A DNA stretch of 54,419 nucleotides, taken from positions 1 through 54,419 of IMG/VR virus record IMGVR_UViG_3300037590_000132; one strand, 5' to 3'. The DNA comes from a virus (Duplodnaviria; Caudoviricetes). The notes under the pieces are model-generated. The model did no database searches. It was not told the origin of the DNA and saw only the letters and a list, made by a program, of their open reading frames with translations. Shown one piece after another: positions 1 through 28,670 of this stretch. Positions within the stretch are counted from its first letter, which is position 1, and each line of letters begins with the position of its first letter. Both the position numbers and the translations under genes were made by a program.

Positions 1-2157
1 TCAAGGCGATGGCGGTGGCGGATACGTAACAGTCGTTCCGAATTCCCACTGGATGTGCCCTGCTGCGTCAACGTCGCTGGCCAATGCGATCACATGGTTG
101 TCAGCGGTGAAAAGATCCAGAGGAGAACTGACGCCTCTCAGGTACTCATCTTCCGTCGGGCATCGCTCCAGCAGGTATTCGTAGACGACTTGCACGGAAA
201 ACTCTCGCCCGCGTCCATCCGGATTGAGCTTGGGCGATTTTTGGGAGACTTGCCTGTCGTTCAGGACCTCTCGGATTCCGTTGTGATCAAGCTGTTCTTC
301 CTTCATCGATGGCAGCGTGGGCTGTTTGCCGTTTCGGCTGGCCGTCATCGTCAAGATGCGTTTTGCCGTTGGGTCGTGAAGACGGATCAGGGCAGCGGAC
401 TTGGTGCCCTCTTGAATCTTCGCGTACGGGAGCTGCGACCAACCATTTCGAAGGTGGTAGGTTTGCTCCACCTCCACGAACGTGTACGGGAAATTGTACA
501 GGTCGGAATTCGACGAATAAGCCGAGTTGTCTTCGGGCAGTTCATGCTGGACTTGGTATTCATACCCGGGCGTGGGTCGATCCAGCCCGTCTGCTTTTCC
601 CGATGGAGTGTAGCCGGGGTTTTTGTTTTGGTATTTGAGCGAATCTGAATCAGGAAGTGTTGCTTCGTCGCCCGACTCTTCTTCCTCTTCTTCGCCAGTC
701 GTCGATGGAGGCATTCCGCCGGGCATTCCGTGCCAAACGCTGCACGGGTGCTGCAAATAGCAATTGAAGATGCCCGCGGGCGTTTCGCTGTCGTACGCCA
801 GCGGAACGGGCCACACGTCAGGCTGATAGCCGTCAATGATGTACGGATCGTCTTCGGAGGTCTGGCCATCCGGGTTGAGGTTTTTCATTGGAACCCCCAT
901 CTTTTTTATTCGCAATGCCAACGCAGTATACGTGTCTTCTGAATACCTAACTTGAACACGCATTTCGATGACTGGTTGATCTATGACATCAACTATCGAG
1001 GCATTCTGTAACATCGTGTGATGAAGCTGCACGCCATTTTCGTCAAAAGGGTTTCCCAGCCCCTGAATCCTGGATGCGGCAATTTTCCCGGCAGCTCCGA
1101 TAAGTTGTATCTTGTCCACGCCAGGTGGGCCTTGCAGTCGAATGTGAAATTCACCGCCTTTCAAAATTCCGTTTGGTCCTGAAGATGTTTCGGCATGATG
1201 GCCGCTCCATTTGATCGCAGGGTACGGCGGTGCCGCATGAGCCTGAACGTCTTCAACCCGATATTTAAGTACCGTATCGGTCGGGTCGCTGACGAACGAC
1301 TGACGAGCTCGCTTGTAGCCTTTCAGCAACGGTGGAATGCAGAGGTAACGCATCGCGTGCGGCCAGAATTGGCTGTTGATAACTCGCAGCGTTCCCTGCA
1401 TCGTTCGCGTTGTAATCCAGTTTTCATCTTTGGATTCTTCCAGGTGCCAGCGGTTCGAAAGAACGGCTGAATTTGGGTTTTCGAGACCGCCGAGAACGAT
1501 CGGCTTGATGTCTTCGTAATCGGTTTTGCAGAGTCGCCGGGTGATTTCGATTTCGAATTCGACGCTGAGCGACCGGCCGCCGATGATCTTCTTCACCGAA
1601 ACGTTTAACGGCCTCGGCCCGTTCTTGCAGTCGAGAACGTTTTCAGCCGGGAACGGTGTGTTGAACGGTCCGTATTCGGTGGTTGAATAATCGCTGGTGT
1701 GGTTCGGATCGAGCGGATTCGGCTGGATCGTTCGCGGCGTTCGTTCGACGTATTCGACGATCTCGCTGTTGACCGTCCTGGTTTTGATTTCTTCGTCGTA
1801 GGCCTGTCCGGATGCGATCAAAAGCGGTTGATCGATGACCGTTGGCGAGTTGGTTTTCTCGCTGGTTGGATTCGATTCAGTCAAAAACCAGAAGTCCTTC
1901 CGCGATTCGCTCAGACGAGCGTGGATGTCATGGGCTTTTTGTGCTGCCGTGTTTCCAACTGGCGTTTGAATTCCGAAGTCGCGACGAGGTTCATACGGTT
2001 GCAGGATTTCGTGAACCGACACGATTGTGCTGGCAACACGAATTCGGAACACGCTGAAAAGAATGTCGGTGTTTGAATCGTCATAGACGATCTTTTGTTC
2101 GAAAGACAAAGTCTCGACATCACGAAGAATGACGCCGTTGTAAATCATGATTGTCAT
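1..2157 (-). CDS. Putative tail/baseplate-associated protein
   Basis: 718 aa ORF immediately downstream of, and overlapping, the tape measure gene. Called from position only. Confidence 0.45.
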   Translation of the reverse strand: MTIMIYNGVILRDVETLSFEQKIVYDDSNTDILFSVFRIRVASTIVSVHEILQPYEPRRDFGIQTPVGNTAAQKAHDIHARLSESRKDFWFLTESNPTSEKTNSPTVIDQPLLIASGQAYDEEIKTRTVNSEIVEYVERTPRTIQPNPLDPNHTSDYSTTEYGPFNTPFPAENVLDCKNGPRPLNVSVKKIIGGRSLSVEFEIEITRRLCKTDYEDIKPIVLGGLENPNSAVLSNRWHLEESKDENWITTRTMQGTLRVINSQFWPHAMRYLCIPPLLKGYKRARQSFVSDPTDTVLKYRVEDVQAHAAPPYPAIKWSGHHAETSSGPNGILKGGEFHIRLQGPPGVDKIQLIGAAGKIAASRIQGLGNPFDENGVQLHHTMLQNASIVDVIDQPVIEMRVQVRYSEDTYTALALRIKKMGVPMKNLNPDGQTSEDDPYIIDGYQPDVWPVPLAYDSETPAGIFNCYLQHPCSVWHGMPGGMPPSTTGEEEEEESGDEATLPDSDSLKYQNKNPGYTPSGKADGLDRPTPGYEYQVQHELPEDNSAYSSNSDLYNFPYTFVEVEQTYHLRNGWSQLPYAKIQEGTKSAALIRLHDPTAKRILTMTASRNGKQPTLPSMKEEQLDHNGIREVLNDRQVSQKSPKLNPDGRGREFSVQVVYEYLLERCPTEDEYLRGVSSPLDLFTADNHVIALASDVDAAGHIQWEFGTTVTYPPPPSP

Positions 2158-6281: not shown

Positions 6282-7340
6282 TCAGGTCAACAGTCCGGTC
6301 AAACGGAATCCGCTGGCCGATGCGGTGATAACGGGCTGTTGATCGTCGACCACGTGACCTTCGGTACGGCGGTGCTTTTCATCGTCGAAGGTTTGAACGC
6401 TCATGTCCTCTTTCAAGAACAGCGACAAGGTCGAGAACGATGGGCCGCCGCCAGGAGGTGCAACCAATCCGCCGGGTCGGGCCAACAAGTAAGCCACGCC
6501 ATCGGGCATGATGTAATCGGCCACTCTCGCAGACGCACCACGTCGACTGGTCACCTTCGTTGAATCTTCGATGACCGTGTCAACGCCGTACAACTTGGGC
6601 GGCAATCCGAATTCATCGAACCCGTCCGAGTCGCCTTGGCGAAGCTGTGGAAGCGAATATCGGCTTCCCTTCAAGTACTCGGCGATTTCCTGGGTGACCG
6701 CAATTGAGCGAGCAGTGTTGGGGTTCATCACCAGTACCATGTCTTTGCGACGAACGACGCTGAGGGTCGCTTTGATGATCACGTCCAAGGCATAGTTGAT
6801 GCTTTTCTGGATGAACTTGTTAACCGACGTTGCGGTGTCCCAAGCTCCGGTTACACCATCAATCGTGGTGACATCTTTGACGTGATCGGATTCCCAGTTT
6901 GCGTTGTTGCCAAGCACGCCGTGAACGCGAACGGTCCGTCCGGTCATCGCTTGCTGAGCTTTCATCGCCTCATGCGATTCGACGATGCCCCAGGCTGCTT
7001 GATCGCGAGCTTCGAAACCCAATTTATACGGGAAGTCGTACCGCTGGGTGTTGTACGGCAAAAACGAGAACATCTCGGTGCCGTCGTTGTTCTGTGGCCG
7101 GTCCGATCCATCAGGCCATACGAAATCCGATAGATTGGAATCCAGAATTCGACCGGCTTCTTCGGTCGTGATCTTCAAATAGAAGCCGCTCTTGAGCGAG
7201 ACTTCTCGTTGTTGAATGTACCGGTTGAGCGGGAAATCCTTGACGTTGCGGCTGAACCCAGTGACGAGCTTGTCGCTGCCTTCGCCGAAGGATCGAACGT
7301 AAGTGTTGTTGCCGCCTGGTAGGACCGGTGTGCTGGTCAT
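6282..7340 (-). CDS. Major capsid protein
   Basis: 352 aa, follows the protease and decoration genes. Contains the LVMNPxT and LPPKLYGV motifs typical of HK97-fold capsids. Confidence 0.75.
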   Translation of the reverse strand: MTSTPVLPGGNNTYVRSFGEGSDKLVTGFSRNVKDFPLNRYIQQREVSLKSGFYLKITTEEAGRILDSNLSDFVWPDGSDRPQNNDGTEMFSFLPYNTQRYDFPYKLGFEARDQAAWGIVESHEAMKAQQAMTGRTVRVHGVLGNNANWESDHVKDVTTIDGVTGAWDTATSVNKFIQKSINYALDVIIKATLSVVRRKDMVLVMNPNTARSIAVTQEIAEYLKGSRYSLPQLRQGDSDGFDEFGLPPKLYGVDTVIEDSTKVTSRRGASARVADYIMPDGVAYLLARPGGLVAPPGGGPSFSTLSLFLKEDMSVQTFDDEKHRRTEGHVVDDQQPVITASASGFRLTGLLT

Positions 7341-7386
7341 GGGATAAACTCCAGAGAGTGTCCCAGTTCCGTTGGTCGGTCACCGG
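7339..7386 (-). promoter_or_regulatory. Late-motif copy E, coupled to a hairpin that hides the capsid RBS
   Basis: CCGGT-GA-CCG-ACCAA-CGG-A-ACTGG overlaps TGGGACACTC-TCTG-GAGTTTATCCCA, which buries GGAG next to the ATG. Confidence 0.6.
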
Positions 7387-7464: not shown

Positions 7465-7866
7465 TCATGCGGAAGGCAAGGAACCGTAGCGAACGACGCA
7501 CTTGATCTTCTCGTTCGCTGCTGCAGCTGATCTCGCCACGGCGGAGTACTCGTCGCCAGCGACGGCCTTGATCGCTTTTCCATCGGCGTCTGGCTTCAAG
7601 GGATCACCCGCGGCGACGGTCGCACCCGCGACGACTTCGCAGGGTTCGCCCAGCCCATACACCTGGCAGGACTGCCCCGCTTCGGCGGCGTTTCCGCTGG
7701 CGCCGGGGATGGGGGCGGTGTTGGTGCCTTCTGCACTGACGCCAGCATTCGCAACGTCATCGGCGACACACTGCACCACGGAATTGTTTTCGCCAGCTTC
7801 AAGCTTGACGAATCGGCTCGGAAGAATATTCCCGCCGGCGATGTAGCTTGGGTTCGAATGGGGCAT
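7465..7866 (-). CDS. Capsid cement/decoration protein (DUF2190-like)
   Basis: Ala/Gly-rich 133 aa with AGATVAAGDPLKPDADGKAI, between the protease and capsid genes. Confidence 0.7.
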   Translation of the reverse strand: MPHSNPSYIAGGNILPSRFVKLEAGENNSVVQCVADDVANAGVSAEGTNTAPIPGASGNAAEAGQSCQVYGLGEPCEVVAGATVAAGDPLKPDADGKAIKAVAGDEYSAVARSAAAANEKIKCVVRYGSLPSA

Positions 7867-8003: not shown

Positions 8004-9563
8004 TCAGTTCGTTCCGATTCGTTGCTTCGCTTCCGATTTCAGTTCGTCGTAAGTTCGGTATTCGCCTTTGTTGGCGTATTGGGCACTCAGCTGACGAATG
8101 ATTTGGGATTCTTCCGCTTGGTAGCGTGCCGTTTCTTGATCGGTTTGCTGACCAACCGGCATTGCACCTTGCGGAATTGCTTGCGTTTGCGTGATCGCTT
8201 TGGCGGCGTAACGCTCAATGACATCGCAATGCTGTTCAAACTGCGAATCATTCATGGTTGATCCAGCGGAGTACAAGCACTGATTCATTTCAGCGTCGAT
8301 GTCGATCGGCATACGACCAGCGATTTCCCGCAACCGAGACGAACGGACCGCATCAGTGCGTTCCACTTCCAGGGTCGCCAATCGGCTTTTGCTGTCAGCC
8401 AAATCATCAACCAGCGTTTGTTGGCCATTGGCCATCGCCTGATACTTGTCAGCGAGTGCCTGGTACTTCTCAGCGAGGTCTGATTCGCTGGAGTCGCCAA
8501 CCGTTTCAGGCTGTTCGTCAGATTGATAGCGTGGTGTTGGAGCGGGTTGACCGCCGACCATTCCGCCCATCGCCCCAAACTGCTGGGGAGGTCCGCCTGC
8601 GGGGCTGCTGCCAGGTTGGGTCCCACCAGCCGGTGTCCCGCCCGTGCCCATTTGCTGCAAAACCCATTGCATTGGTTCGGTGTTCATGACTCCGTCAATG
8701 ATTTTGCGGATCAGTGCGTTTTCGTCCATCGGAGCGGTTCCGTTTGGGTTGGGAGGGTCGGGTTGATTGTCGAATTTTTGGACGTGAGTGTTCCCGCCAC
8801 CTGGCAGTGCGGCAAAGGCTCCAGTCGGAGCGATTGCTTCATACCGATCAGCGACGACGTCGTGATTGACCGAAAAACGGTCCACGAACAGATCGCTTCG
8901 CCCATCTTCAGTGTTGACGGAGAACTGAACTGGAAGTGGTAGTCGTGGGGCTTCGCTAATCGCGGCGATTGGGTTGATGTAGCTGCGGCCGTTGGATTTG
9001 AGCGTCAAAACCTCAACGCTTCGACCGCCGCGGTCCGCCAGTTGATGAGCTTTGTCTTTTCGGATGTACTCATCACAAAAGATCGCCAGCCGAGGCTCCG
9101 AACGACCAATCATCCCTAGCCGGAACGGCCCGGAAACACCCACCGTGACCGGAGGCGACGGATCGCGTTGACCAGCTGGAACCGTGTGTCGATCAATGAT
9201 CGTTGGGTAAGCGTCCACGTCGAAGATTCGGTGATTATTTTCACCGACGATCTCGGACAATTTAGAAGCGTCGTACCGGCGGACTATCGGTTCCCCGTTC
9301 GCCCCGGTCGATGCTGCTTCATGTTCGGAGAAGTAGCAAACGTCTTCACGTTTGATGTAGCGATCGATCGGGTATTTTTTGTCAGCACGATCGCGTTCGC
9401 TATTTCCGTAAACAGCTGACCATGCTTCCCACGCAATGTGGTTTCGGTCCATTGGCTCGGGGACTACCGGCGATAGCTCTTGATGGGCACGCACGACAAA
9501 ATCCGCCTCCGACTCATTCGGTCTGGGAGCGATTTTTTTCGATAGTGATGTCAGTGCAACCAA
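8004..9563 (-). CDS. Putative prohead protease/scaffold protein
   Basis: Upstream of the decoration and capsid genes; globular N-terminus (IDRH..., RSVE) and a coiled-coil C-terminus. Start moved to TTG 9563 because 9579-9638 is a regulatory element. Confidence 0.65.
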   Translation of the reverse strand: MVALTSLSKKIAPRPNESEADFVVRAHQELSPVVPEPMDRNHIAWEAWSAVYGNSERDRADKKYPIDRYIKREDVCYFSEHEAASTGANGEPIVRRYDASKLSEIVGENNHRIFDVDAYPTIIDRHTVPAGQRDPSPPVTVGVSGPFRLGMIGRSEPRLAIFCDEYIRKDKAHQLADRGGRSVEVLTLKSNGRSYINPIAAISEAPRLPLPVQFSVNTEDGRSDLFVDRFSVNHDVVADRYEAIAPTGAFAALPGGGNTHVQKFDNQPDPPNPNGTAPMDENALIRKIIDGVMNTEPMQWVLQQMGTGGTPAGGTQPGSSPAGGPPQQFGAMGGMVGGQPAPTPRYQSDEQPETVGDSSESDLAEKYQALADKYQAMANGQQTLVDDLADSKSRLATLEVERTDAVRSSRLREIAGRMPIDIDAEMNQCLYSAGSTMNDSQFEQHCDVIERYAAKAITQTQAIPQGAMPVGQQTDQETARYQAEESQIIRQLSAQYANKGEYRTYDELKSEAKQRIGTN

Positions 9564-9578
9564 TTCAATGGCTCGTTG

Positions 9579-9638
9579 AAACGAAAAAAGCCACACGCCC
9601 CGAAGATGGGATGTGTGGCTCTGGTGGTCAGTGGCCAA
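9579..9638 (-). terminator. Late-motif copy C: antiterminator-like hairpin overlapping an intrinsic terminator
   Basis: TGGC-CA-CTG-ACCAC-CAG-AGCCACAC...GTGTGGCT-TTTTTCGTTT. Confidence 0.8.
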
Positions 9639-9649
9639 CGTCTAAAAAA

Positions 9650-9723
9650 TTGCGGAGACTGGATTTGAACCAGTGATCTCAAGGTTATGAGCCTTGCGGG
9701 ATACCAAGCTTCCCCACTCCGCC
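9650..9723 (-). tRNA. tRNA-Met(CAT), initiator-like
   Basis: GGCGGAG acceptor with a 1:72 mismatch, G11:C24 pair, CAAGG-CTCATAA-CCTTG anticodon arm, GGTTCAAATCC T arm. No encoded CCA. Confidence 0.92.
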
Positions 9724-9737
9724 ATGTGTTGTGACCG

Positions 9738-9965
9738 TCACGCGGTCAATCGTTCGTTTTTCTCTGTGTCGCCGATCGTCGTGATTGATCTGTCAATGAT
9801 TCCATCGTTGACTTGCACGGTTACTGCGACGGACCCGTACAGGTTTGGGTTGTAGTGAAGTTCTGATGTCAATCGTTGGCGAAGTCTTTCGCAAGCACGT
9901 TCGATACCAGCTTCGTTGGTTTGGTCCCGATTGATTTGTCGATTCGCCAGTTTCGGCATCGTCAT
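9738..9965 (-). CDS. Small DUF2292/YezD-like protein
   Basis: 75 aa from ATG 9965; YGSVAVTVQVNDGII resembles the YGSVxITVxDGxI pattern. Confidence 0.5.
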   Translation of the reverse strand: MTMPKLANRQINRDQTNEAGIERACERLRQRLTSELHYNPNLYGSVAVTVQVNDGIIDRSITTIGDTEKNERLTA

Positions 9966-9995
9966 CCCTGCGAAAAAGGTCTTTTGTTGGTCCAC

Positions 9996-10047
9996 TAAAA
10001 AAGCCACTTGCAAGTGATCCGCAAGTGGCTCCGATGATCGGTCACCA
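9996..10047 (-). terminator. Late-motif copy D plus terminator
   Basis: TGGT-GA-CCG-ATCAT-CGG-AGCCACTTGC...GCAAGTGGCT-TTTTT. Confidence 0.8.
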
Positions 10048-10063
10048 ACTCAATCAACAATTT

Positions 10064-12979
10064 TTATACCGCTGCCGTTGGGCTGTCAACAATCGAAGTG
10101 ATTCTTGATTGAAAGCGATCGATAAACGCATCCGCAAATTGGGTTGAAAACGGAACCGGTGATTCGTCTGGCTCTCCCCATTCAGCACCCATTTTGAAAG
10201 TTGGGTCATACTCATAGTCGGATGCCTTGCCGGTTGAGCTCATCATATCTTTGGCAAGAGCAAACACCTTCTCGTCTGTCTTCGATGGAACCTTTTCGAA
10301 GCCTTCTTTCAGACGACTAAACAAAGCGTTTTCTGAATCGCCGTTGCCAACTGATTCGGATCGACCGCCAGTGAGGAGCTGCGGGAACGAATCTTTTGCC
10401 ATATCGACCATCTCGTCAAACCGCGGGATCTGGCTTGCGTCACCTCCTTGCCCATGGGTTCGCCGGACAGCCTGAATGATCTGCGATGTTTTCTTGCCGC
10501 GGTACCCGAAGTTGCCAAGAAGCTGACGGAGATCGTCGTTCGTTTCTTCCGCTTCTGTGCGAATCATTTTGTGGGCATCGTCCATCAGGTCGCGGAACAG
10601 CGATACGTCATCGGGATGGTTGCCCGCATGATCAACGATCCTGTAGTCCAGGTCGGTGACGGGTTGGAACAACGGCTGTTGGTCACTGCTTTTCGTTCGA
10701 ATCCGATCCGAACGTTCGCCCTGGACAGATCGCGGATTCTTTCCACGCATCGAACGTGGTCCGCGGGACACCTTGTCCGATTCAATGAATACCGGATGAC
10801 CGTCGATTGTGACGAAACGTCCACGATCGCCTTTTGATCCAATTACTGTTCCGTCAGCCTCTTTTTGTTTTCCGCTTGTTGTTCTTTGGTTGCTGGTTTG
10901 TTTTGCAGCGGCTCGGTATCGGGCGATGGCAACTTCATCCCATCGGTGTAGACCGGCGGCATATCGTTGTCGCTCGGAAGCGACTGTGGTTTGGAGTCGG
11001 ATTCGCTCATATTTCCATCCAAAGTGTTGGGCTACCAGTTGGTTGACTTCGTGCCAATGTTCCGCACTCGCGATGTCGATCGCTTCAGATTGCGATTGGG
11101 AACCAGCCTTGGCTGCTTTTGCGATCTTAGACAAGTATCGATCTTTCACCAGCGAATCTTTCTCGTTGATGATCTTTTTTAAGATAGCTCGTCCGGATCG
11201 GGAGAGTTCCGAGTCGCCCATGTTGGGTTCAAAGATGAAAAGATATCCAGGCGAAATCACTCTCATCTGCTTCACGCCGTAATCAACCGCCACCATCATG
11301 TCGCCTGGTGAGAATGAATTCCCCATTCGCCGCGGGTTGTCTTCTGCGTGCTCCCAGCCGTTGGGATGATTGTGGGTCAAGATTGATCCTCGGAAGTGCT
11401 GTTTCGCTTCCTCAATCAAAAACGTTACCTGCGTTTTGCCACCGCTTTTGGACCAAAGCTCGTTGCCGTCTTCATCAAATGCGATCAGCTTTTCCGTCTT
11501 GCGGGTACGGATGGTCGTTTCGGCTCGATAGATCGCAGGATGGGTTTTGCCTCGCCCAACGTTCGCGTACACCACCGACTTAACTGGCAAAGCAGCCCTC
11601 GTTGCCTTCGGTTTCTTTGTCTCGGGTTTGACAGGGTTGTTCGAGTCAGAATCATCGCTGTCTTCAAACAGGTTCATCTGGCCGGGTGAGGCATCCAGTC
11701 CATTGATCAAGTTGGTTTGGCGTGCCGGCGGACGGTCAGACGACGATTGCTTCTCGCCTGACTGGGTCGCGAATTTTCCATCGCTTTGCCTTGGGTGCTT
11801 TGATTCGTCCCAATCAAACTTCTTTTGTGTTTTCGTTGACCGCAACGTTCCCTTTCCATCCACTCCGCTACTGAACAATCCGATTTGTCCAGGTGAATCG
11901 CGGTGGTTCGACATGTAGTGATCCATCGCCGCACTGAAAGACGTGATTGCGAATCGCTCGTGATCTTCAACTGGCCTGAACAACGAGTCGTTTGGCTTCA
12001 GTTTGGGAGCGAGGTTTCTTGGGATCATGTCGTTGTGGCGAATCACCGGTTTCAGATCGACCCCGCTTTCTCGGGCTTCTGCCAGGATGGTTTTCAGGTC
12101 TCCCATCAGCTTTTGAATGCCCGGTTGATCCACGTAGTTGTCCCATGCGTTTTTCTTCGCGGCGACCGGATCGCGATCATTTCGCTTTGCACCCTGAGCA
12201 ACCTGACCAACTGGCTGAACCTTTGCGGTCAAACTGTTGCTCCAATGCAAGAGTGCACTTCGGATTTGTTCATCTAGATGGCTGTGATGAAGCGGGTGTT
12301 CCTTCGGATCCGGTTCAGCCGCTTGCTCTGCCTTTAACGCTTCAACGTTCGCTTCCCACTGGCGGATCGCAGCTGCGGCCGGGCTCGCAGGCTCGTTGGT
12401 TCGTTTCGGTTCTGGCGGCTTCGGCGACTCTACCTTTGGCTTCGGATCTGCAGACGCTCCTGGCTTGCTAGTGAACTTGCCTCCGTCGCGTGGGTGTTTT
12501 GATTCGTCCCAGTCGAAAGTCGCTTGGCGAGCATCGTAGCGACTGACCTGATCGACGATCGGTTTTTTTCGACTTCCGTGTTTCAACCATGATCTGAATT
12601 GATCGATGGTCATCGTCGTGACGTTCCCGACTTTCCAATCGGCGGTATAGCATTTTCGATAAGCTGCAACAGCGGCTTCTTTGGATGGATACCCGATCAA
12701 AACCTTGTGTTCGTCAAATTCACCATCCAAGTTGGGTTGATCAATCACAACCACAAGTTGGATGTCTTTGTGTGGCCCGACGAACACGTCAACGTGATCA
12801 CCATCGGCTCCAGTCGTCCGCTTGATGTATCCGTAATCCGCAGACATCTTCGGCCAATTTGGACGCCGCCGGCATCCCCTTGGCGTTTCGATCGCAATAT
12901 CGAGACCGTGCAAACGGATGTGCTTCTTTCGATAGTTGCCGGCTTCGGCTTGTGCTGGCGTCGGTGTCATATCAAACAA
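10064..12979 (-). CDS. Polyvalent protein: inorganic pyrophosphatase-like domain, two WDESKHPR repeats, JAB/MPN-like domain
   Basis: YGYIKRTTGADGDHVDVFVG...FDEHKV; FDWDESKHPR..GKF twice; THNHP...SFSPGD; FVTIDGHPVFI. Confidence 0.75.
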   Translation of the reverse strand: MFDMTPTPAQAEAGNYRKKHIRLHGLDIAIETPRGCRRRPNWPKMSADYGYIKRTTGADGDHVDVFVGPHKDIQLVVVIDQPNLDGEFDEHKVLIGYPSKEAAVAAYRKCYTADWKVGNVTTMTIDQFRSWLKHGSRKKPIVDQVSRYDARQATFDWDESKHPRDGGKFTSKPGASADPKPKVESPKPPEPKRTNEPASPAAAAIRQWEANVEALKAEQAAEPDPKEHPLHHSHLDEQIRSALLHWSNSLTAKVQPVGQVAQGAKRNDRDPVAAKKNAWDNYVDQPGIQKLMGDLKTILAEARESGVDLKPVIRHNDMIPRNLAPKLKPNDSLFRPVEDHERFAITSFSAAMDHYMSNHRDSPGQIGLFSSGVDGKGTLRSTKTQKKFDWDESKHPRQSDGKFATQSGEKQSSSDRPPARQTNLINGLDASPGQMNLFEDSDDSDSNNPVKPETKKPKATRAALPVKSVVYANVGRGKTHPAIYRAETTIRTRKTEKLIAFDEDGNELWSKSGGKTQVTFLIEEAKQHFRGSILTHNHPNGWEHAEDNPRRMGNSFSPGDMMVAVDYGVKQMRVISPGYLFIFEPNMGDSELSRSGRAILKKIINEKDSLVKDRYLSKIAKAAKAGSQSQSEAIDIASAEHWHEVNQLVAQHFGWKYERIRLQTTVASERQRYAAGLHRWDEVAIARYRAAAKQTSNQRTTSGKQKEADGTVIGSKGDRGRFVTIDGHPVFIESDKVSRGPRSMRGKNPRSVQGERSDRIRTKSSDQQPLFQPVTDLDYRIVDHAGNHPDDVSLFRDLMDDAHKMIRTEAEETNDDLRQLLGNFGYRGKKTSQIIQAVRRTHGQGGDASQIPRFDEMVDMAKDSFPQLLTGGRSESVGNGDSENALFSRLKEGFEKVPSKTDEKVFALAKDMMSSTGKASDYEYDPTFKMGAEWGEPDESPVPFSTQFADAFIDRFQSRITSIVDSPTAAV

Positions 12980-15365
12980 CCAAGGTGGCGATGTTGGCGG
13001 TTCCAGATGCGGGCACCGTGATTTGCGTTCTCACTGCCCGTCCTTCGTAGGTGACAGAAATGTCGTAAGTCACACCCTGGATGAGATTGATCAGAATCAC
13101 CCCGCTCTCACTTTCAGCGGTCACCGTTGTCGGGAACACAAGCGATTCTGTGGTGAACGTCGCTTCCGATGCCGTCGCGGCCACCATCTTTGCCCCAGTG
13201 ATCGGAACATTGTGCGCCGTGACGACTTGCAGGGTACATTCGCAGTCGTCCTCTTCGGACAACGCCGGTGCGGTGACTTTTTCGAGCGAAACCGCCCGCG
13301 GAACATCATCCTCGACAACCGTGACTTCGATCGGCGTCGGAATCGAATAGCCGTAGGGTGGAATGATTCGGACCGTGTAAGTCGCGTTGTTCGGAACGTA
13401 GATTCGAGCAACGCCATCGATTCCGCTGATTTGCAGAGCGTAGCCGTTGATCTCGATTGCGACATTCGAAACTGGATCTTCGGTTTCGTCATCATCGAAG
13501 GTGAAAACGATTGCCGAGAAGGTGCTAGGAATCGATCCGCCGCCCCCACTGACCGACGAAACCGCGACGTCCAGGTTCGCACCAAAGCTGCCAGCGGTGT
13601 TGTGATCATCCGTCGCAGCATTCCACACGGCCGCCGCGTTCTGAGTCGCACTAGGCACATTGCCAAGTGCGGTTAGCACGTCATCGAGAACCGGGGCAGT
13701 GCCATCGACTGACGATCCATCACCAAACGAGGCGGTGTTGATGACTTCGCTAGCTTCGGGTGCGTGGTACGTCCCAGTGGTGCCAGACGCCGGGCCGTAG
13801 CTGACCGAATCCAATACGCTTGCAGCACTCGGCAAAACAACCGTCCCGGTCGTCGCATCGACGTTGACGCCAGATAGCACTTGTGCTGCCGTTGGCACAT
13901 AGCAAGTTCCCGTTGTGCCATCGCCGCGATCCACGCCGAATCGAACGTCAGACGCATTGGCGTAGGTTGGCGTTTCTTCGCCTGCCAGCAAAGCTGCGTA
14001 GGCCGCTTCGCCCAGTGCTTTCATCCCTGCCGCGTCATAGTGAACGTCGTCAACTTTCAACGTCATCGCGTCTGTGTCAATCCAAGACGTAGCGGCGTCC
14101 ATCGACCCGACCACCTCTTGATACTTGCGGACATCGGCGACACCAGAAGCATCGAACGCCGGATCTTCTTCGCGAATCCTTGCCACGCAGAACTTGGCCG
14201 AAGCATCGCCCATTTGTTCGCGGTATTTTTCGATTAAGGGTCGCAGGTTCTCGCCGTACTCCGCACCGTAGGCTGCTGACGTTGCGTCTTGCTCACCTTG
14301 CATCCACAGCACACCAGCCAAGTCCGGGCCGATCCCAGCATTGAGCATGTCGGCCTCCACCGTCCAAAGGTTACGCATGGCCAAATTGAATTTGTTTGCA
14401 GACGCCTCGTCGTCCAGTGACCAATCATTCGCACCTGTGTTAGCGAGGTAGCTGCTGCCGACACCATACTTTGAGATGTATAGCGTTTGGCTCGCGTCCT
14501 CGGCCTCCCACGCTAGTCCCATCTCAGGACCAAAATCCGTCGCGGGCGCGTCGGTTTGGTTGTTGGTGCCCATCACCAACGCAGCGGTGGTCAGTGTGTC
14601 GCGGCTGCTGATATAGACGTTTGCGGGAGTTGTTTTGAGTTGGTCGCCTGCCGAAAGATTCGCGATTTTCGCACGGCCCTCTGCGTTGCTTTGACCCCAG
14701 ACCCCAACGAGCTTTGCAGTCGAGGGGCAATCCCGATAGTCAATGTAGAAGGATCGTGATGCCGCAAGCTGCCTTGCCATAAAGTAGATACGCTGACGTT
14801 CCGCATCCGTCAGAACATTGTCAAAGACGGCAGCCCACGCGATCCCAAAATCCGCCAAGCGGCTCGTCGTAGTCGAGTGTCTGCCACCCCACCCAAAAAT
14901 CGTGTTGTACGCCTGGGAATACTCGGCAAACACTACGACCCAATTGCCGCGATTAACCCGATATGCGACTTGGCCGTTCGAATCACGACGGTAAATCGGG
15001 ACCACGCCACGCACGGACCCGGTGTGAAATTTTGGAAACACCGACGGGTCCACAGTCTGCGGGAACGTGCCGTACCCGCTGCTCAGACCACCGCTAATAA
15101 GGAATCCTCCGTTTTCGCCCTTGCCTGTCCGGCACAAGAGAACAACCGTCCGCGCCCCTGTAATGCTTGGCGTCTGGATCAATCCACTCGCAAGCGAAAT
15201 GCCCTCGGTTTCCCAGGTGTAGTTGGGGTCAGTCGGGGTTGTTAGATCAATGTCGCTTGACCCGACTTCGTCGGCAACAGTCGTGCCGCTGCCTTCGCCG
15301 AAATGCCACTCCGAAATCAACGCACCGTTTTCGGGATCGGTCAGTCGGTAATCTGTCCAGGCCAT
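12972..15365 (-). CDS. Virion-associated sialate O-acetylesterase-type (SASA) protein with lectin-like and Ig-like parts
   Basis: GQSNAEG, WMQGEQD and DDVHY SGNH blocks; N-terminal WHFGEGSGTTVAD LamG-like start; TTGTxxxPxAxxV repeats. Confidence 0.75.
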   Translation of the reverse strand: MAWTDYRLTDPENGALISEWHFGEGSGTTVADEVGSSDIDLTTPTDPNYTWETEGISLASGLIQTPSITGARTVVLLCRTGKGENGGFLISGGLSSGYGTFPQTVDPSVFPKFHTGSVRGVVPIYRRDSNGQVAYRVNRGNWVVVFAEYSQAYNTIFGWGGRHSTTTSRLADFGIAWAAVFDNVLTDAERQRIYFMARQLAASRSFYIDYRDCPSTAKLVGVWGQSNAEGRAKIANLSAGDQLKTTPANVYISSRDTLTTAALVMGTNNQTDAPATDFGPEMGLAWEAEDASQTLYISKYGVGSSYLANTGANDWSLDDEASANKFNLAMRNLWTVEADMLNAGIGPDLAGVLWMQGEQDATSAAYGAEYGENLRPLIEKYREQMGDASAKFCVARIREEDPAFDASGVADVRKYQEVVGSMDAATSWIDTDAMTLKVDDVHYDAAGMKALGEAAYAALLAGEETPTYANASDVRFGVDRGDGTTGTCYVPTAAQVLSGVNVDATTGTVVLPSAASVLDSVSYGPASGTTGTYHAPEASEVINTASFGDGSSVDGTAPVLDDVLTALGNVPSATQNAAAVWNAATDDHNTAGSFGANLDVAVSSVSGGGGSIPSTFSAIVFTFDDDETEDPVSNVAIEINGYALQISGIDGVARIYVPNNATYTVRIIPPYGYSIPTPIEVTVVEDDVPRAVSLEKVTAPALSEEDDCECTLQVVTAHNVPITGAKMVAATASEATFTTESLVFPTTVTAESESGVILINLIQGVTYDISVTYEGRAVRTQITVPASGTANIATLVV

Positions 15366-15386
15366 TTTTAACTCTTTCGGTGTCTA

Positions 15387-16112
15387 CTATTGGTCTGATG
15401 ATGGTATGGCTGATCGCAATAGCTTGGACCAAATCTTGTTGCCAACCGCGTTCAAATGGAGTCCGTCCGCGATGCACTTATCGTTGTCGAGGCGACCGTC
15501 GCCATCACTGTCGAGCGATGGAGTCGCGTCTACGAAAACAAAATTTGCTTGCGATTGCGCTGCTGACAGTTTTGAGTTGATGCGGCTAATTCGATCAGTA
15601 AATCCAACCATCGCCGGATCGAGTTCCGTGTTGACTGGCAATAGCGACGAAACAAAAACTTGTTGGGTCGTAATGTTGCCAACGATTGCAATGATGCCCT
15701 CGACGATGGCATCGTCTGACTTCTTGGCCAAGTCATTGATGCCGATCGCGAGGAAAACAAACTTCGCACGCCGAATTGAACTTTCGTATTTCGGTAATCG
15801 TTCAACAACACCATCAATTGTGTCACTTCCAATTCCGTAGTTCACAGCTCGATCGCAGACAGCATCAACGCTCATGCCTTGTATGAGGCTATCTCCGATA
15901 AATATCCCGCAGCCGTCAGGCAATGCCCCGTCGGATCGCTTGTGATACTCGACCATTCGGTCAAAGAACGTGTTTTGGCTAGCCGCAGCAACTTGGCCGG
16001 TAAGCTTCACTAGCACGCGCGGAATGACCTGGTCATGCCACACGATCGCAGCTAATGCGGCGTGAATAAAAACGAGGTAGGAAACCAGGACGATTCGTGT
16101 TTGTTTTTTCAT
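15387..16112 (-). CDS. Membrane-anchored GDSL/SGNH hydrolase
   Basis: N-terminal TM helix; FIGDSL, NYGIGSD, AIGIND, DGLHLN. Confidence 0.9.
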   Translation of the reverse strand: MKKQTRIVLVSYLVFIHAALAAIVWHDQVIPRVLVKLTGQVAAASQNTFFDRMVEYHKRSDGALPDGCGIFIGDSLIQGMSVDAVCDRAVNYGIGSDTIDGVVERLPKYESSIRRAKFVFLAIGINDLAKKSDDAIVEGIIAIVGNITTQQVFVSSLLPVNTELDPAMVGFTDRISRINSKLSAAQSQANFVFVDATPSLDSDGDGRLDNDKCIADGLHLNAVGNKIWSKLLRSAIPSSDQ

Positions 16113-16234
16113 TTCAGACGCTCTTTCTGCGGTTGGTTGGCGAGAGGGAGAGCATTTTACTCAGCGATGATAAAGTCGGACCATGTGCGATGAAAATCGC
16201 ACTAGGTTAGTGAGGTAGTGCGGAAACTTCCGCA

Positions 16235-17782
16235 TTAGGCTGATTTGTTGACCGCGTTGGCATGGAACTCTGACATGACATCGTTGAACGCTTTGTCCAG
16301 GTCCAAGACGGCCGGTTTTGTTGATCCGATTGGTTGTGAATTCCCCGCTCCAGCAATGCCTTGGCCAGCTGAGCTCAAAACGTCGTCACTGACGTCAGGC
16401 ATTGATGCACCAATCGTGTCATAGACTTCGCTTGACTTGATCTTCAGACCCATGTCGTAAGCTTTTTTGTATGCTTCCATCTTGGCGGCGATGTTCGGTG
16501 ATTCCGTGTCAATTCGGAACCTTGGTTGCATCCGCCAGAGTGATGGGAAGTTGGCTGTCTGGATGGTGCGAACAAAATCGTTCGTGATCGTCTCTTCCAG
16601 ATTGCGTGCGTCGTACTCCACGATGTCAGCAAACGTCGCCATGTGGGCATCCGCAACACCACTTCCAAGACCAGTTGAATCAGCTTCACTGGTGAGCGTT
16701 TGCCCCAAAATGTAACGCTTGATGCGATGACCAAAATAACTTCGGATGATATCGATCGTGGTCGAAACACCACCCAGTCCTGGTTCAATCAGTTGCGGCA
16801 TGAATCGATCTGGGTGATCATCGGGTGGAAGAGGTGCCAAAATTACCGTCCGACCGCCCCCCATCGCTTCGTGAGCGGCCCGCTCGGTGTCTTCTTGTGA
16901 CTTCGGATTCCCAGATTGATAAGGCCAGATCTCGATACCAAAAGCGGCTCGGTCAAGATATTCAACAACACGCTGAAGACACTCCACCATTGCATACCAT
17001 GTCCAGTAAATCCGATCGCGGATTCCCACGCCGTGGATACGACCTGCCATCACTGGATCCTGGTAAGGACCATCTTCGATTTGGTGCTTGTGGAGCAGCA
17101 TTGTCTTTCGCTGCCACGGATTCAGCCAGTAAACCAGCCCCTGTTCGGTTGGCTCAATCTGCCGAACGATATCGCCCGTTCGCGGGTCGCGGTAGCTTCG
17201 TTGACCTTGCCATGCTGCGTGCACTCGAATGCCGACTTGGTCCTCGTCGGCGGTATAGGATCCATCGTTGTAGCGAAACACCAACTTGTCGCCGTGGCGA
17301 GGTTCCCACACTTTCGCGATCGTTCGATACTGTCCTTTCACAAGGGACGGACGGTACCGAATCACATTCGCGTACCGCCCATACCAGATTGCTTCCATTG
17401 CTGTTCGCCGAAACTCAGTGAATCGTGGAGTCGCTTCCATGATGTCATTGAGCATCGCACACAAAGCAAGTTCATCTTGATTGTTGCTGTCTTCTGGTTC
17501 GATGTGCCAATTCAACAGAGCAGTGGCACGCTGTCGGGCTTCGATGCACTCCATGATCCCGCAATCAGCACGCATTCGCTCCGCGTTCGATCGGCTATCG
17601 CGAAGAGCTTCATCCAGGTTGAGGTAGGACTGGGAAATGATTCCCCGTCGCCCGCCGACCGTGTGGATATGGGGAAGCCAATCTTGCCCAAAATTGGGCG
17701 ATGCTCCAAGGATTCCTTCAGCAGGATCTCGCTGTGACTGCTGGATCACTCGGGCTGGCAGCTGATTGGGACTGAGCGTCAT
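16235..17782 (-). CDS. Portal protein (Mu gp29/DUF935-like)
   Basis: AIWYG and ILGQTLTSE...GLGSGVADAH motifs; 515 aa. Confidence 0.85.
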   Translation of the reverse strand: MTLSPNQLPARVIQQSQRDPAEGILGASPNFGQDWLPHIHTVGGRRGIISQSYLNLDEALRDSRSNAERMRADCGIMECIEARQRATALLNWHIEPEDSNNQDELALCAMLNDIMEATPRFTEFRRTAMEAIWYGRYANVIRYRPSLVKGQYRTIAKVWEPRHGDKLVFRYNDGSYTADEDQVGIRVHAAWQGQRSYRDPRTGDIVRQIEPTEQGLVYWLNPWQRKTMLLHKHQIEDGPYQDPVMAGRIHGVGIRDRIYWTWYAMVECLQRVVEYLDRAAFGIEIWPYQSGNPKSQEDTERAAHEAMGGGRTVILAPLPPDDHPDRFMPQLIEPGLGGVSTTIDIIRSYFGHRIKRYILGQTLTSEADSTGLGSGVADAHMATFADIVEYDARNLEETITNDFVRTIQTANFPSLWRMQPRFRIDTESPNIAAKMEAYKKAYDMGLKIKSSEVYDTIGASMPDVSDDVLSSAGQGIAGAGNSQPIGSTKPAVLDLDKAFNDVMSEFHANAVNKSA

Positions 17783-17800
17783 GTTTTCTCGATTGCCCAG

Positions 17801-17859
17801 AAACGAAAAAAGCCCGCTCTCGCTGGGTTGCGAAAGCGGGCTCCGGTGGTCGGTTGCCG
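17801..17859 (-). terminator. Late-motif copy B plus terminator, upstream of the portal gene
   Basis: GGC-AA-CCG-ACCAC-CGG-AGCCCGCTTTCGC...GCGAGAGCGGGCT-TTTTTCGTTT. Confidence 0.85.
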
Positions 17860-17886
17860 TTTGATTGTCGTCCGATCATCTTAGCG

Positions 17887-18534
17887 TCAAGGATGCAGGC
17901 CGGCAAACGATCTCGTGCTGGTAAATGATGGCCCACCACGATCCAGTCCGTACCACATTCCGGAACGGTACTCGTTTTCCGGTGGACACTTCAAGTCATT
18001 CAAGTACGACAAGCATCGTGTCATCAGCTCTGACTGATAATCCAGGGAAGCAATCGATTGCTCCAGTGCGATCAGACCGCTTTCAAGATTCTCCAAAATG
18101 AATGACTTTGCTTCTGCGTTGCTCGATCTTTCGTTTGACTTCTCAAAGCGTTCGATCTGCTTTTTCAGTTTGTCTCTTCCGTCTCGGTGTCGATTAGCGT
18201 GATCTTTGAAATCCTGTCGACGTGCGTCGAGTTGACGGCAGATACTCTTGATTGGATCGCTGTTATCATTGGCGAAGGCGTCAGCCAGCATTGGTGCAAT
18301 CGTTGATTCAACCTCGTTCTGAGCCTTCGATTCGCTTTCAGTTTCGCCAGTTTTGTCAAATCGTTTTCGACGTGCTGGATCAACCAAAATGTCGCGGGCT
18401 TCCGTTAGACGCTTCATATCTTCCTCGCTTCCGCCGTGGTCGGGGTGCATTTTCATCGCGTTTTGCCGGTAGGCTCGCTTGATGTCATCGATCGACGCGT
18501 CGCGATCGACTCCGAGGATTTCGTAAGGGTTCAC
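17887..18534 (-). CDS. J-domain (DnaJ-like) protein
   Basis: NPYEILGV...IKRAYR...HPD followed by a coiled coil. The GTG start overlaps the upstream stop (GTGA). Confidence 0.9.
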   Translation of the reverse strand: MNPYEILGVDRDASIDDIKRAYRQNAMKMHPDHGGSEEDMKRLTEARDILVDPARRKRFDKTGETESESKAQNEVESTIAPMLADAFANDNSDPIKSICRQLDARRQDFKDHANRHRDGRDKLKKQIERFEKSNERSSNAEAKSFILENLESGLIALEQSIASLDYQSELMTRCLSYLNDLKCPPENEYRSGMWYGLDRGGPSFTSTRSFAGLHP

Positions 18535-18884
18535 CTGGATGGCCTCATTTCGACAAATACTTCCAATCCAAGCCCCCTGGCGGTTTCGATCATGTTCTTT
18601 GTGCCGCGAGACCGACCGTCCCAAAATGCTATCAGGCGTTCGCCGTATTCAGCCATTTCGCGATTTCTGATCGGGCCGGCTGCTTTTCCGTGCTTTCCCC
18701 AGTCAGCGGGGAACATCTTCACCGGAACCCCGCGATCGATTGCCCATCTGCGACCGCATTCGTCCGCACCATTCGCGCCCCCACACACAACCTCCGATAT
18801 TTCAAAGGAATCGAGAACCTTCCGATCTGCTTCGGTGAACTGATAGTTCCGCCCGCCCGCAATGATGGTTTTCTTGGCGTTCAT
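18531..18884 (-). CDS. SLOG family protein (DUF2493/YspA-like)
   Basis: IIAGGRNY, GGANGAD, ADW..HGKAAGPIRN..M, AFWDG.SRGT. Confidence 0.9.
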   Translation of the reverse strand: MNAKKTIIAGGRNYQFTEADRKVLDSFEISEVVCGGANGADECGRRWAIDRGVPVKMFPADWGKHGKAAGPIRNREMAEYGERLIAFWDGRSRGTKNMIETARGLGLEVFVEMRPSR

Positions 18885-19252
18885 TTCGCCGCCGCCATCT
18901 GATCGACCTGTTTTTCCCATCGATCCAAAAGCGATCGGATTGTTTGATCGTGCCGTCTTTCTCGATCGACAGATTCAGAAATCCAAGTGTGCAAAGCGGA
19001 GAATGGTTCACCCTTGATTGTTTCGACGATGTTTCGAATTTCTCGAATGGCATCATCAAGAATCACGGCTTCCGTTCTCGGTGGTCCGGTCGGACGAGAT
19101 AATCTGTCCAGGCACTTGCTTAGCAGATGCACCTGCTGATCCATCGAATCCGAGATTGAATTCAGATAGATCGAATGGTCCTCTTGAAAACCATCGATCC
19201 TTTCAAGCAGTTCTTCGGTTCGGCTTCGACGTTTCCAGAACTTCCAAGGCAT
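18881..19252 (-). CDS. Hypothetical protein
   Basis: 123 aa, tightly coupled within the operon. Confidence 0.6.
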   Translation of the reverse strand: MPWKFWKRRSRTEELLERIDGFQEDHSIYLNSISDSMDQQVHLLSKCLDRLSRPTGPPRTEAVILDDAIREIRNIVETIKGEPFSALHTWISESVDRERRHDQTIRSLLDRWEKQVDQMAAAK

Positions 19253-19258
19253 AACGCG

Positions 19259-20128: not shown

Positions 20129-20130
20129 GA

Positions 20131-20589
20131 TCAGTCTTTCTTGAGGTTGCTTCGCTGGCGACCAACTTGGCTGGCGATGACTTGGACGCCCTGTTTATCC
20201 AAAGCATCAATCACTTCTGCGTTGCCAGCGTCTGGATGTTCTGAAAGGTAGTCACGAATGTGTTGGGCTTCGGATTTGGGTTTGCCACTGGACTCCTCTT
20301 CGTCGGCATCTTCTTTTTCGAGTGCTTCTTTGAATTCGGGATCGTTTTCTTTGCGGTTTTCAATCCGTTCCTCGAAATCGATCGCGATTGGATTCCCTTC
20401 ATCGTCCACCGAGTTATCGTCGGTTGTTGGCCAATCGCAGATGACGCCCTTTCGTTCAAGCTCATCTGGCATCATTCGTTCGGCGATTTCGTTGGGCCAA
20501 GCAATCGAGTGCATTTTCCGACCGCTCCGCTCAATAAAAAAACCAACTCCAATGGTTCCATCGCTTTTCTTGTACGTGTTGTGAGTCAT
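20131..20589 (-). CDS. Hypothetical protein, possible C-terminal HTH
   Basis: Coupled ORF containing IRDYLSEHPDA.NAEVIDAL. Confidence 0.6.
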   Translation of the reverse strand: MTHNTYKKSDGTIGVGFFIERSGRKMHSIAWPNEIAERMMPDELERKGVICDWPTTDDNSVDDEGNPIAIDFEERIENRKENDPEFKEALEKEDADEEESSGKPKSEAQHIRDYLSEHPDAGNAEVIDALDKQGVQVIASQVGRQRSNLKKD

Positions 20590-22672: not shown

Positions 22673-22680
22673 GGGCTACT

Positions 22681-24588: not shown

Positions 24589-24593
24589 GTCGA

Positions 24594-28087: not shown

Positions 28088-28145
28088 AAACGAAAAAAGC
28101 CCCTCCGAGAATTGATCTCGAAGGGGCTCCGGTGGTCGGTTGCCG
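28088..28145 (-). terminator. Late-motif copy A plus terminator, at the head of the late region
   Basis: GGC-AA-CCG-ACCAC-CGG-AGCCCCTTCGAGA...TCTCGGAGGGGCT-TTTTTCGTTT. Confidence 0.85.
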
Positions 28146-28211
28146 CGTAATTCTTTTTGCAGACGCGAGTTCTTACAAAACTCGTTCCGTTGAGCGGATA
28201 TTACGAGCGGT

Positions 28212-28670
28212 TCATTCGATTGTCAAATCATCTCGCTTCGTTTTTGACAGCCAGGGTTTTGGGATTCCGTCAACTTCTTGTCGGCAGGTTCGGCATTTCA
28301 TCACAACGCTTCCGTCGCTGAACCAGATTTCGCTGTGCCACTGCGATCGGCAGTTTTCACAAACTGGCGACATCGCATTCCACCAAAAGAATCCCGTTTC
28401 GGTGACGACCGACGAATTCATTTCATCACGAACTGAATCTCGGTTTTCTGTTTCGCTGAATCTTTCATTCGCATCACTTGCGTTTTCGTTTGGTTGAATT
28501 TCAGCAATGACGAATTCGTTTGGCGGAGGCTGGCAATCAACGCACCTCCATTCGTTCGAATGATGCGGTCGCCAAAACTTTCCGCCAAAGCAGTCCTCGC
28601 AGAATGCTGGAAGCGAAATTTCGGTTTCAATTCGCTTTCGCGAAAACTTTTGCTTGATTGAATCAATCAT
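28212..28670 (-). CDS. Double zinc-ribbon protein
   Basis: Four CxxC motifs: CEDC, CVDC, CENC, CRTC. Confidence 0.6.
   Translation of the reverse strand: MIDSIKQKFSRKRIETEISLPAFCEDCFGGKFWRPHHSNEWRCVDCQPPPNEFVIAEIQPNENASDANERFSETENRDSVRDEMNSSVVTETGFFWWNAMSPVCENCRSQWHSEIWFSDGSVVMKCRTCRQEVDGIPKPWLSKTKRDDLTIE

Follow-up and report, generated by a model that had tools for sequence, protein, structure and literature searches.

At the head of the late genes of phage lambda, a strong sigma-70-type promoter (PR') is followed within about 50–100 nt by an intrinsic terminator (tR'), and Q has a single site of action, the promoter, where it works through DNA. Antiterminators of the lambda N type are strongly basic and bind the boxB hairpin by means of an N-terminal arginine-rich motif. 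In the BglG/LicT-RAT and ANTAR systems, a small hairpin located 5' of a terminator shares the 5' arm of that terminator, and the two folds exclude each other. Another pattern, the moron as set out by Hendrix and colleagues, is reportedly that of a gene which has its own promoter and terminator and comes and goes between conserved late genes. How planctomycete phages regulate their genes is largely unexplored, and a literature search on DUF2292, and on Planctomycetes together with prophage or antitermination, returned nothing relevant. The present work concerns a locus in a complete provirus of 54,419 bp (IMG/VR record IMGVR_UViG_3300037590_000132), the whole of which was analyzed and is called the window below. 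On its minus strand, a small open reading frame (ORF) of 75 amino acids (9738..9965, stop included), delimited from the ORF list and from homologues, is flanked by two copies, D and C, of a hairpin-plus-terminator motif. A sequence-only reading of this DNA had proposed that the ORF encodes a DUF2292-like, RNA-binding antiterminator that recognizes the motif.

The reading that we favor, while holding it tentatively, is that the small gene is the cargo of a motif-gated, moron-like accessory cassette and not the factor that opens it. Such a cassette appears to be carried by some Pirellulales phages at the entrance of the capsid operon, and would consist, in order, of a sigma-70-like promoter, hairpin plus terminator D, the small ORF, a tRNA-Met gene, and hairpin plus terminator C.

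The listed frame of the small ORF runs for 91 amino acids from a TTG (9738..10013, minus strand) to a TGA stop at 9738–9740; the 75 residues are counted from the ATG at 9965, and a second ATG at 9959 has the sequence AGGGA 5 nt ahead of it. The T-run of copy D stops 31 nt ahead of the ATG of the small ORF. The tRNA-Met gene with a CAT anticodon (9649–9724, minus strand; 58.3 bits with the Rfam tRNA model) lies 13 nt past the ORF stop and is presumably co-transcribed with the ORF, and copy C begins 12 nt past the tRNA. The ORF, the peptide YGSVAVTVQVNDGII (residues 43–57 of the 75-aa protein), the tRNA-Met gene and both flanking motif copies were all found where the sequence-only reading had placed them. 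The same arrangement is present in L016, a metagenome contig of 1,082 bp that holds the whole cassette: the end of a homologue of the upstream 971-aa gene, a TTGACA box, the motif, the small ORF, tRNA-Met, the motif again, and the start of a homologue of the downstream scaffold-like gene (487-aa type). When the small ORF was compared with its L016 orthologue, the ratio of nonsynonymous to synonymous differences (pN/pS) was 0.42 over 62 codons, with 22, 20 and 36 differences at the first, second and third codon positions. Because of this ratio, and of the small homologues retrieved by HMMER, the small ORF is judged to be a genuine protein-coding gene.

An HMMER search against 1.84e9 representatives yielded 29 proteins at E≤0.001, the best at an E value of 2.4e-18 and 58% identity. 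Eight of these are small (70–89 aa) or tandem (138 and 140 aa) forms, including the window's own 89-aa record, and a profile search contributed five further small members, one of them from a Planctomycetaceae metagenome-assembled genome (MAG). The other 21 proteins, with lengths of 691–3208 aa and 3–10 matched stretches each, were treated as showing motif likeness and not as members; the two that were inspected (P0006 and P0008) consist of tandem Ig/cadherin-like repeats sharing a ...NDG..DS... strand. Family members are 52–80 aa in length, some being tandem-fused, and each unit has an N-terminal tail that carries a conserved N-R..T-N motif, then a single long helix containing Arg, then a beta-hairpin. 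In an alignment (A7) of the 11 sequences that make up branch 1 of the family, R29, R31, D58 and K69 are invariant. The family was seen only in planctomycete phage, prophage and metagenome DNA. Searches of Pfam, PHROG and NCBIfam with the window protein and its family gave noise only (for the window protein, a 13-bit cwf21 match was all that Pfam returned at E≤10), and tblastn of the small protein against 50,697 phage records gave no match. Locus searches of viral, genome and metagenome contigs with the protein or with narrow alignments recovered nothing except L016, and a locus search with a neighboring protein recovered nothing. By these sequence comparisons, the 75-aa protein founds an undescribed family of small proteins.

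The AlphaFold2 (AF2) model of the 75-aa protein, with a predicted local distance difference test score (pLDDT) of 80, contains a helix at residues 13–38 and strands at residues 45–53 and 56–65. Natural tandem fusions exist (P0004 and P0009), and the AF2 model of P0004 is a compact pseudo-dimer (pLDDT 80.4; predicted template modeling score, 0.72). Prediction of a homodimer of the window protein gave a score of 0.54, versus 0.00 for the best of three controls, with at least 95% of contacts agreeing between runs and a partner pLDDT of at least 80. In the calibration, this mark was reached by 20 of 30 proteins whose solved structure is a same-chain pair and by 1 of 23 whose solved structure is a single chain, counts that are only rough because a custom alignment was used. 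The dimer model has the two first strands paired with each other about the two-fold axis, which suggests that the proteins probably associate through these strands into a four-stranded sheet, forming a symmetric dimer. A fold search of PDB gave no significant match (best E value, 1.4 with the monomer model and 0.03 with that of the tandem form), the best E values in BFVD by fold and in PDB by sequence were 0.15 and 0.12, respectively, and the ESM Atlas returned unnamed viral clusters at 0.85. The protein is near-neutral, with a pI of 6.6 and 10 Arg plus Lys versus 10 Asp plus Glu residues.

Four full copies of the motif were localized in the window, all on the minus strand. Two were identified by pattern scan and covariance model (CM), at the head of the late region (28093..28144) and ahead of the Mu-type portal gene (17806..17858). 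Copy D (9997..10046; 53.1 bits with CM R1) consists of a mini-hairpin at 10027–10046 with the terminator hairpin and T-run after it; of the four copies this one has diverged most, and its RNA fold has an energy of -23.6 kcal/mol. Copy C (9584..9636; 69.6 bits with CM R1) combines a stem with a compensatory CTG/CAG change and a terminator, directly ahead of the scaffold-like gene. A fifth mini-hairpin, without a terminator, was found at 7365..7384 on the same strand (CM, 14.9 bits) and ends 24 nt ahead of the capsid ATG at 7340. The full copies share the 20-mer GGY-NR-CNG-AYCAH-CNG-A-GCC, followed by a hairpin with a copy-specific upper stem and then by GGCTTTTTT. The full degenerate pattern has four matches in the window versus 0.00 expected from 100 shuffles; a 17-mer with at most one mismatch has seven matches versus a mean of 0.46 in shuffles, and its five exact matches are all intergenic and on the minus strand.

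The 20-mer can fold as a two-step mini-hairpin in which 48 of 48 cells are paired across eight copies (four from the window, two from L016, and one each from L017 and L020). One inner pair varies, being C-G in five copies, U-A in two and G-C in one; the covariation score was reached by 2 of 500 shuffles, and slid frames were 21–44% paired. The L017 and L020 copies were found with a pattern having N at positions 13 and 21, and both pair, whereas the chance matches in L018 and L019 do not. The 3' GCC of the mini-hairpin, which belongs to its outer stem GGY/GCC, is at the same time the 5' base of the terminator stem, where it pairs with GGC, in all eight terminator-linked copies. As judged from these pairings, the motif is real, its mini-hairpin shows compensatory changes, and the mini-hairpin and terminator folds would be mutually exclusive over the last 3–5 pairs. 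Interpretation of the 20-mer as an ECF-type or late promoter was rejected, since the pairing covaries and no conserved -10 element is found at a fixed distance. An exact 16-mer had 14 matches in viral contigs, none with the hairpin, and all were set aside as chance. Rfam reported only tRNAs in the window at the gathering threshold, and a relaxed search added one small-RNA match at 19.6 bits versus a cut-off of 40. The CM search of five related whole genomes gave no copy above 26 bits among the 150 candidates scored per genome (out of 515–740). In one relative, L059, a mini-hairpin with one mismatch lies at about 2060–2079 (minus strand), in the same place before the capsid gene, although the capsid protein is only about 43% identical; the terminator-less copy in the capsid leader of both the window and L059 implies that the hairpin has a role apart from terminators.

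Promoter-like sites precede two of the motif copies. A near-consensus sigma-70-like promoter, TTGACA-17-TAATAT (28198..28226, minus strand), could be discerned in the sequence itself, some 55 nt ahead of the 28-kb copy. The second site (10060..10089, minus strand; TTGACA with a TAYAAA-type -10 box, 10/12 in a consensus scan) falls within the 3'-terminal part of the 971-aa gene, some 10 nt ahead of copy D; both of its boxes, TTGACA and the -10-like one, are found at the same position in L016, where the upstream reading frame has a different end. If terminated, transcripts from both sites would be short RNAs of about 65–100 nt composed of hairpin and terminator, possibly functioning as independent small RNAs. 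A separate observation relates to the terminators themselves: at L016 (934–944), L058, L060 and L063, the scaffold-like ATG is only 7–10 nt past the terminator T-run (...TTTTTTTATT(T)GCC(C)ATG), which leaves no room for a Shine-Dalgarno sequence, and the T-run may there serve a second purpose, as the -10-like box of a transcript with a short leader or none.

To describe the distribution of the family, a profile search of 401 Pirellulales genomes was performed, resulting in six weak matches. One (L037) lies inside a 255-aa low-complexity frame and was dropped from the family counts; the other five, from prophages, form branch 2, which matched branch 1 with an hhalign probability of 97.8% (E value, 8e-13). 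Branch-2 modules have the gene order lambda-type portal, small gene, a protein of about 390–450 aa, and capsid gene. They share no other BLAST-detectable protein with the window, the portal being of the lambda type in L040 versus the Mu type here, and none of the five carries a tRNA. In three of the five, the small gene is immediately followed by a GAGCC...GGCTTTTTT terminator, the sole one of its kind in 13–20 kb. In L038/L040 and L039/L041, from two branch-2 prophages, a shared GGTATCCA... element precedes the terminator behind the small gene; this element may be the branch-2 counterpart of the 20-mer.

A search with the major capsid protein (MCP) was positive in 12 of the same 401 genomes. 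Seven of these were examined, the others (G354, G230, G370, G229 and G298) being dropped as their contigs were short or ended near the gene, and a total of nine window-type head modules was thereby available for comparison: the window, L016, and the seven MCP-positive genomes. The scaffold-like, cement-like and capsid genes are kept in order in all seven. A syntenic small ORF detectable by hidden Markov model (HMM) is present in L059 (E value, 4e-5; hhalign, 91.9%), where there is no terminator and the mini-hairpin described above stands before the capsid gene. L058 (hhalign, 65.2%), L063 (10.8%) and L060 (0.6%) have syntenic small ORFs of similar length and pattern whose membership is uncertain when taken singly; behind each is a strong terminator that ends 7–10 nt before the next ATG. 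These three terminators, and a variant of the hairpin in L063 that escaped the pattern scans, were identified by eye. As a group, the four syntenic ORFs matched the family with an hhalign probability of 95.1% (E value, 3.3e-8), and branch 1, branch 2 and the syntenic ORFs are, by profile comparison, one homologous family. In L057, L061 and L062, neither a small ORF nor a terminator was found before the scaffold-like gene, and no hairpin was found. Overall, the small ORF is present in six of the nine modules, with a terminator right behind it in five of the six. In every case the family member is placed after the portal/minor-head genes and before the scaffold-like/capsid genes, and most often an intrinsic terminator follows it closely.

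Two of these relatives showed further elements at the same place. In L063, at about 11880–12060 (plus strand), two divergent mini-hairpins, GGC-CAA-TCG-A(A/C)ACA-CGA-A-GCC, are found past the small ORF, the second of them fused to a terminator; they have the design of the window motif with a different inner stem. In L061, four tandem operator-like repeats of the GTGAGAATCYTTCTCAC type, which lie in a divergent promoter region some 100–200 nt ahead of the 487-aa homologue, occupy the place that the small ORF and terminator hold in other modules.

The proposal of the sequence-only reading implied that gene and motif should be found together, and this was borne out in part. The 17/20-mer hairpin is present in all three modules with an HMM-detectable gene (window, L016 and L059), and was not found in the three modules that lack the small ORF (L057, L061 and L062). 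It was likewise not found in L058 and L060, where membership of the small ORF in the family is uncertain. The modules are few and related, and L058, L060 and L063 are ambiguous. We regard the association as modest and the support that it lends as weak, because the modules are interrelated, the counts are small, and the window and L016 cassettes are orthologues and represent a single event. Two other motif-bearing records do not inform co-occurrence: G001, from a related phage (TerL 50% and portal 45% identical), has one full motif copy on a contig that stops 1.6 kb beyond the portal and does not reach the place of the small gene, and G002 has one copy on a 5.4-kb fragment with an insertion sequence element, in which no family match was found at E≤10 besides two noise matches.

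The DUF2292 label did not hold. The PF10055 model gave no match at E≤10 to the window protein, to any of seven homologues, or to the window translated in six frames, and profile searches stayed below the Pfam gathering cut-off of 22 bits throughout, the best score in the family being 13.3 bits (E value, 0.063) in one of the five branch-2 proteins. As controls, the model found matches in B. subtilis and at six loci in 4 of 151 Planctomycetota genomes. With six genuine Planctomycetota DUF2292 proteins as reference, hhalign probabilities were 10.8% over 21 columns for branch 1, 42.1% for branch 2, 34.7% for the two merged, and 1.9% for the four syntenic ORFs. The weak profile-profile similarity spans 19–32 columns (P, 2.6e-4 to 2.8e-3) and is restricted to the strand-turn-strand hairpin G-x-V...V-x-D-G-x-I, which was the source of the label. 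DUF2292/YezD proteins would likewise be small, of about 50–80 aa, with a helix followed by a G-S/Q-V...V-x-D-G-x-I beta-hairpin; in contrast, the hairpin of the window family is two residues longer, and its members sit in phage head modules whereas DUF2292 is found in cellular loci. A very remote kinship is possible. To our knowledge DUF2292 has no known function, hence the label would carry no implication of RNA binding.

For the motif-gated cargo cassette, we infer from the order of the elements that transcripts starting at the cassette promoter, or arriving from the upstream late genes, would halt at D unless termination were suppressed. Read-through of D would give a single transcript of ORF and tRNA ending at C, the 3' end of which would then be trimmed by tRNA processing. 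The protein itself would be a non-essential, dimeric binding protein that acts on a phage or host partner. A moron-like cargo was ranked first because the gene and its terminator come and go between conserved late genes, a promoter-like site lies upstream, and the transcription unit would be shared with a tRNA. Several observations weigh against it. Terminator D is located between promoter and gene, which would be unexpected for a simple moron expressed in lysogens. The gene keeps the same relative position in head modules with unrelated portals, hinting at a role linked to the capsid genes. Furthermore, the hairpin accompanies the HMM-detectable members in three of three cases and is seen elsewhere only as the divergent L063 hairpin identified by eye, a co-occurrence that fits recognition of the hairpin by the protein and shared descent equally well. 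The cargo reading is drawn mostly from architecture.

The main competitor broadens the earlier proposal: the small protein would bind the 20-nt mini-hairpin as its ligand and act as an antiterminator, an idea that we consider unlikely but worth retaining. Binding would hold the base of the terminator open and shift the remaining hairpin away from the U-tract, and polymerase would continue into the capsid genes; where the copy has no terminator, the protein would act on the capsid leader, through translation or stability, and leaky read-through of D would provide positive feedback. More ambitiously, and to our minds no less doubtful, the protein would represent a new class of small dimeric RNA-hairpin-binding regulators in planctomycete phages, countering termination at more than one place in the late region, with protein and RNA element diversifying together between lineages. 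The location of D between promoter and gene, the fixed position in unrelated modules and the hairpin co-occurrence keep the antiterminator explanation alive. It also draws on the complete pairing of the mini-hairpin with covariation, the GCC common to mini-hairpin and terminator base in all terminator-linked copies, the joint presence of gene and hairpin in the window, L016 and L059 and their joint absence from the three modules L057, L061 and L062, the terminator directly behind the gene in 5/6 window-type and 3/5 branch-2 loci, and the Arg-rich helix with its invariant residues across branch 1. These points are opposed by the near-neutral charge of the protein, with as many basic as acidic residues, by the lack of a match to an RNA-binding domain or fold in searches of Pfam, PHROG, PDB and BFVD, and by the failure of the DUF2292 label. 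Moreover, a symmetric dimer is an awkward fit to an asymmetric 20-nt hairpin, and of the four terminators that it would have to open, three precede the gene. L059 has the gene without a terminator-linked copy, L058 (65% by hhalign) has a terminator without the 17-mer, and the co-occurrence is confounded by relatedness and small counts. The sequence-only reading had also offered a zinc-ribbon protein (28212–28670) as an alternative ligand. Its location just before the first promoter-terminator pair is indeed Q-like, but it was not found in four of five related or motif-bearing records: used as a single query, it had no match in G001, G483, G315 and G380, and only a weak 21.6-bit match on another G002 contig.

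Alternatively, the protein could be a small accessory of head assembly, such as a portal or procapsid chaperone or a minor virion component, with the terminators serving as operon punctuation; this, too, we regard as improbable. Such a role would suit a small, predicted dimeric protein encoded at a fixed place between the portal/minor-head and scaffold-like/capsid genes in both branches, including modules with unrelated portals, and the gene order parallels the F, G | I, T boundary of phage Mu. It is at odds with the absence of the gene from 3/9 related modules in which the scaffold-like, cement-like and capsid genes are retained, and with its fast divergence, as evidenced by single-sequence hhalign values of 92%, 65%, 11% and 0.6% for the four syntenic ORFs. 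No match to a PHROG head or packaging family was obtained, and the gene presumably shares its transcription unit with a tRNA. Finally, that the ORF is untranslated and the stretch a mere structured leader between two terminators is very improbable: a TTGACA box located at, or at most 3 nt from, the small-ORF start in L058 and L063 would place the transcript start inside the ORF, but the conservation of the protein (E values of 2.4e-18 by single-sequence HMMER and about 1e-25 to 1e-30 by profile search), the differences concentrated at third codon positions with the low pN/pS, the tandem-fused forms and the confidently predicted fold all contradict it.

The locus belongs to a long block of co-oriented genes on the minus strand of the window. 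By domain assignment, the block includes an integrase (31148–32197) and a D5-type primase/helicase (28994–31042). These are followed by a group comprising a TerS-like helix-turn-helix protein, TerL (20586–22082), a DnaJ-domain protein and the Mu-type portal (16235–17782; PF06074, E value 3e-40), whose only relatives among the 50,697 phage records are less than 24% identical. The next genes encode a GDSL lipase (15387–16112), a SASA-type acetylesterase protein of 797 aa (12972–15365), and the 971-aa protein (10064–12979), which has an N-terminal InPase domain and matches polyvalent or DarB-like PHROGs; these enzymes, unusual for a head module, interrupt it at 10064–16112. Beyond the cassette lie the scaffold-like gene (8004..9566; about 487–520 aa, start uncertain), which occupies a scaffold/protease position, a cement/scaffold-like gene (7465–7866), the putative major capsid gene (6282–7340, ATG at 7340; 352 aa, assigned from position and homologues), and a gene for a Mu gp36-like protein. 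The scaffold-like protein had no match in Pfam or PHROG and the putative capsid protein none in Pfam; homologues of the scaffold-like gene come after the small ORF in related prophages. The homologues place the host lineage in the order Pirellulales of the Planctomycetota, because the motif occurs in a Pirellulaceae MAG, a family member in a Planctomycetaceae MAG, and capsid homologues in Novipirellula and Roseiconus.

Elsewhere in the window, a 244-aa protein of the early region (33041–33775, minus strand) has a Tad4 (Thoeris inhibitor) domain (Pfam E value, 2.4e-29) and is likely an anti-defense protein. ARAGORN also called a tRNA at 42568–42640 (plus strand; Rfam tRNA, 50.4 bits) with a four-base anticodon (ttgc) and no amino acid assigned, which may have an 8-nt anticodon loop of the frameshift-suppressor type or be a mis-call. 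Contigs from a 2024 sequencing run (X7) contain a close relative of this phage, mostly 95–99% alike with one piece at about 86%, over the compared window positions 8400–28399, the figures stopping short of the small-ORF region; it skips 18533–19250 and has diverged stretches near 24–25 kb.

The locus offers a compact, testable system in which a covarying 20-nt RNA element is joined to intrinsic terminators with consensus-like promoters ahead, and in which an unannotated, fast-evolving family of small proteins accompanies the hairpin element at the entrance to the capsid operon. Should the protein prove to be the ligand, the locus would represent a new module for antitermination; were it cargo, the hairpin would be read by some other factor, and the family would be a new accessory gene.

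Compared with the systems described at the outset, the locus shows likenesses to several of them. The promoter-like site at 28198–28226 with the terminator copy at 28093–28144, and the site at 10060–10089 with the copy at 9997–10046, are lambda-like promoter/terminator pairs. Unlike the Q arrangement, a conserved RNA-type hairpin abuts each terminator here and is repeated within the late region, the small ORF is located 18 kb downstream of the first promoter-terminator pair (28.1–28.2 kb) and not before it, and the small protein has no Q-family match in Pfam or PHROG. It also differs from the N-type antiterminators in its pI of 6.6 and its balanced charge, and has no match to their family in the same databases. 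The sharing of a 5' arm between hairpin and terminator recalls BglG/LicT-RAT and ANTAR; in contrast to these, the overlap is limited to 3–5 nt of the stem base, the element is found in the late operon of a phage where theirs is in a catabolic leader, and the small protein is without a CAT/PRD or ANTAR domain (Pfam, E≤10). With morons the locus shares an upstream promoter-like site conserved in L016, the downstream terminator C, and the absence of the ORF from 3/9 relatives, while it departs from them in having a second terminator between promoter and gene, a tRNA within the cassette, and the same position in unrelated head modules. Taken together, the sequence features resemble promoter-proximal terminator control and come closest to lambda PR'-tR'/Q and to the BglG/RAT and ANTAR systems; the locus is not a member of any of these, the domain searches of the small protein in Pfam and PHROG having given no match to them.

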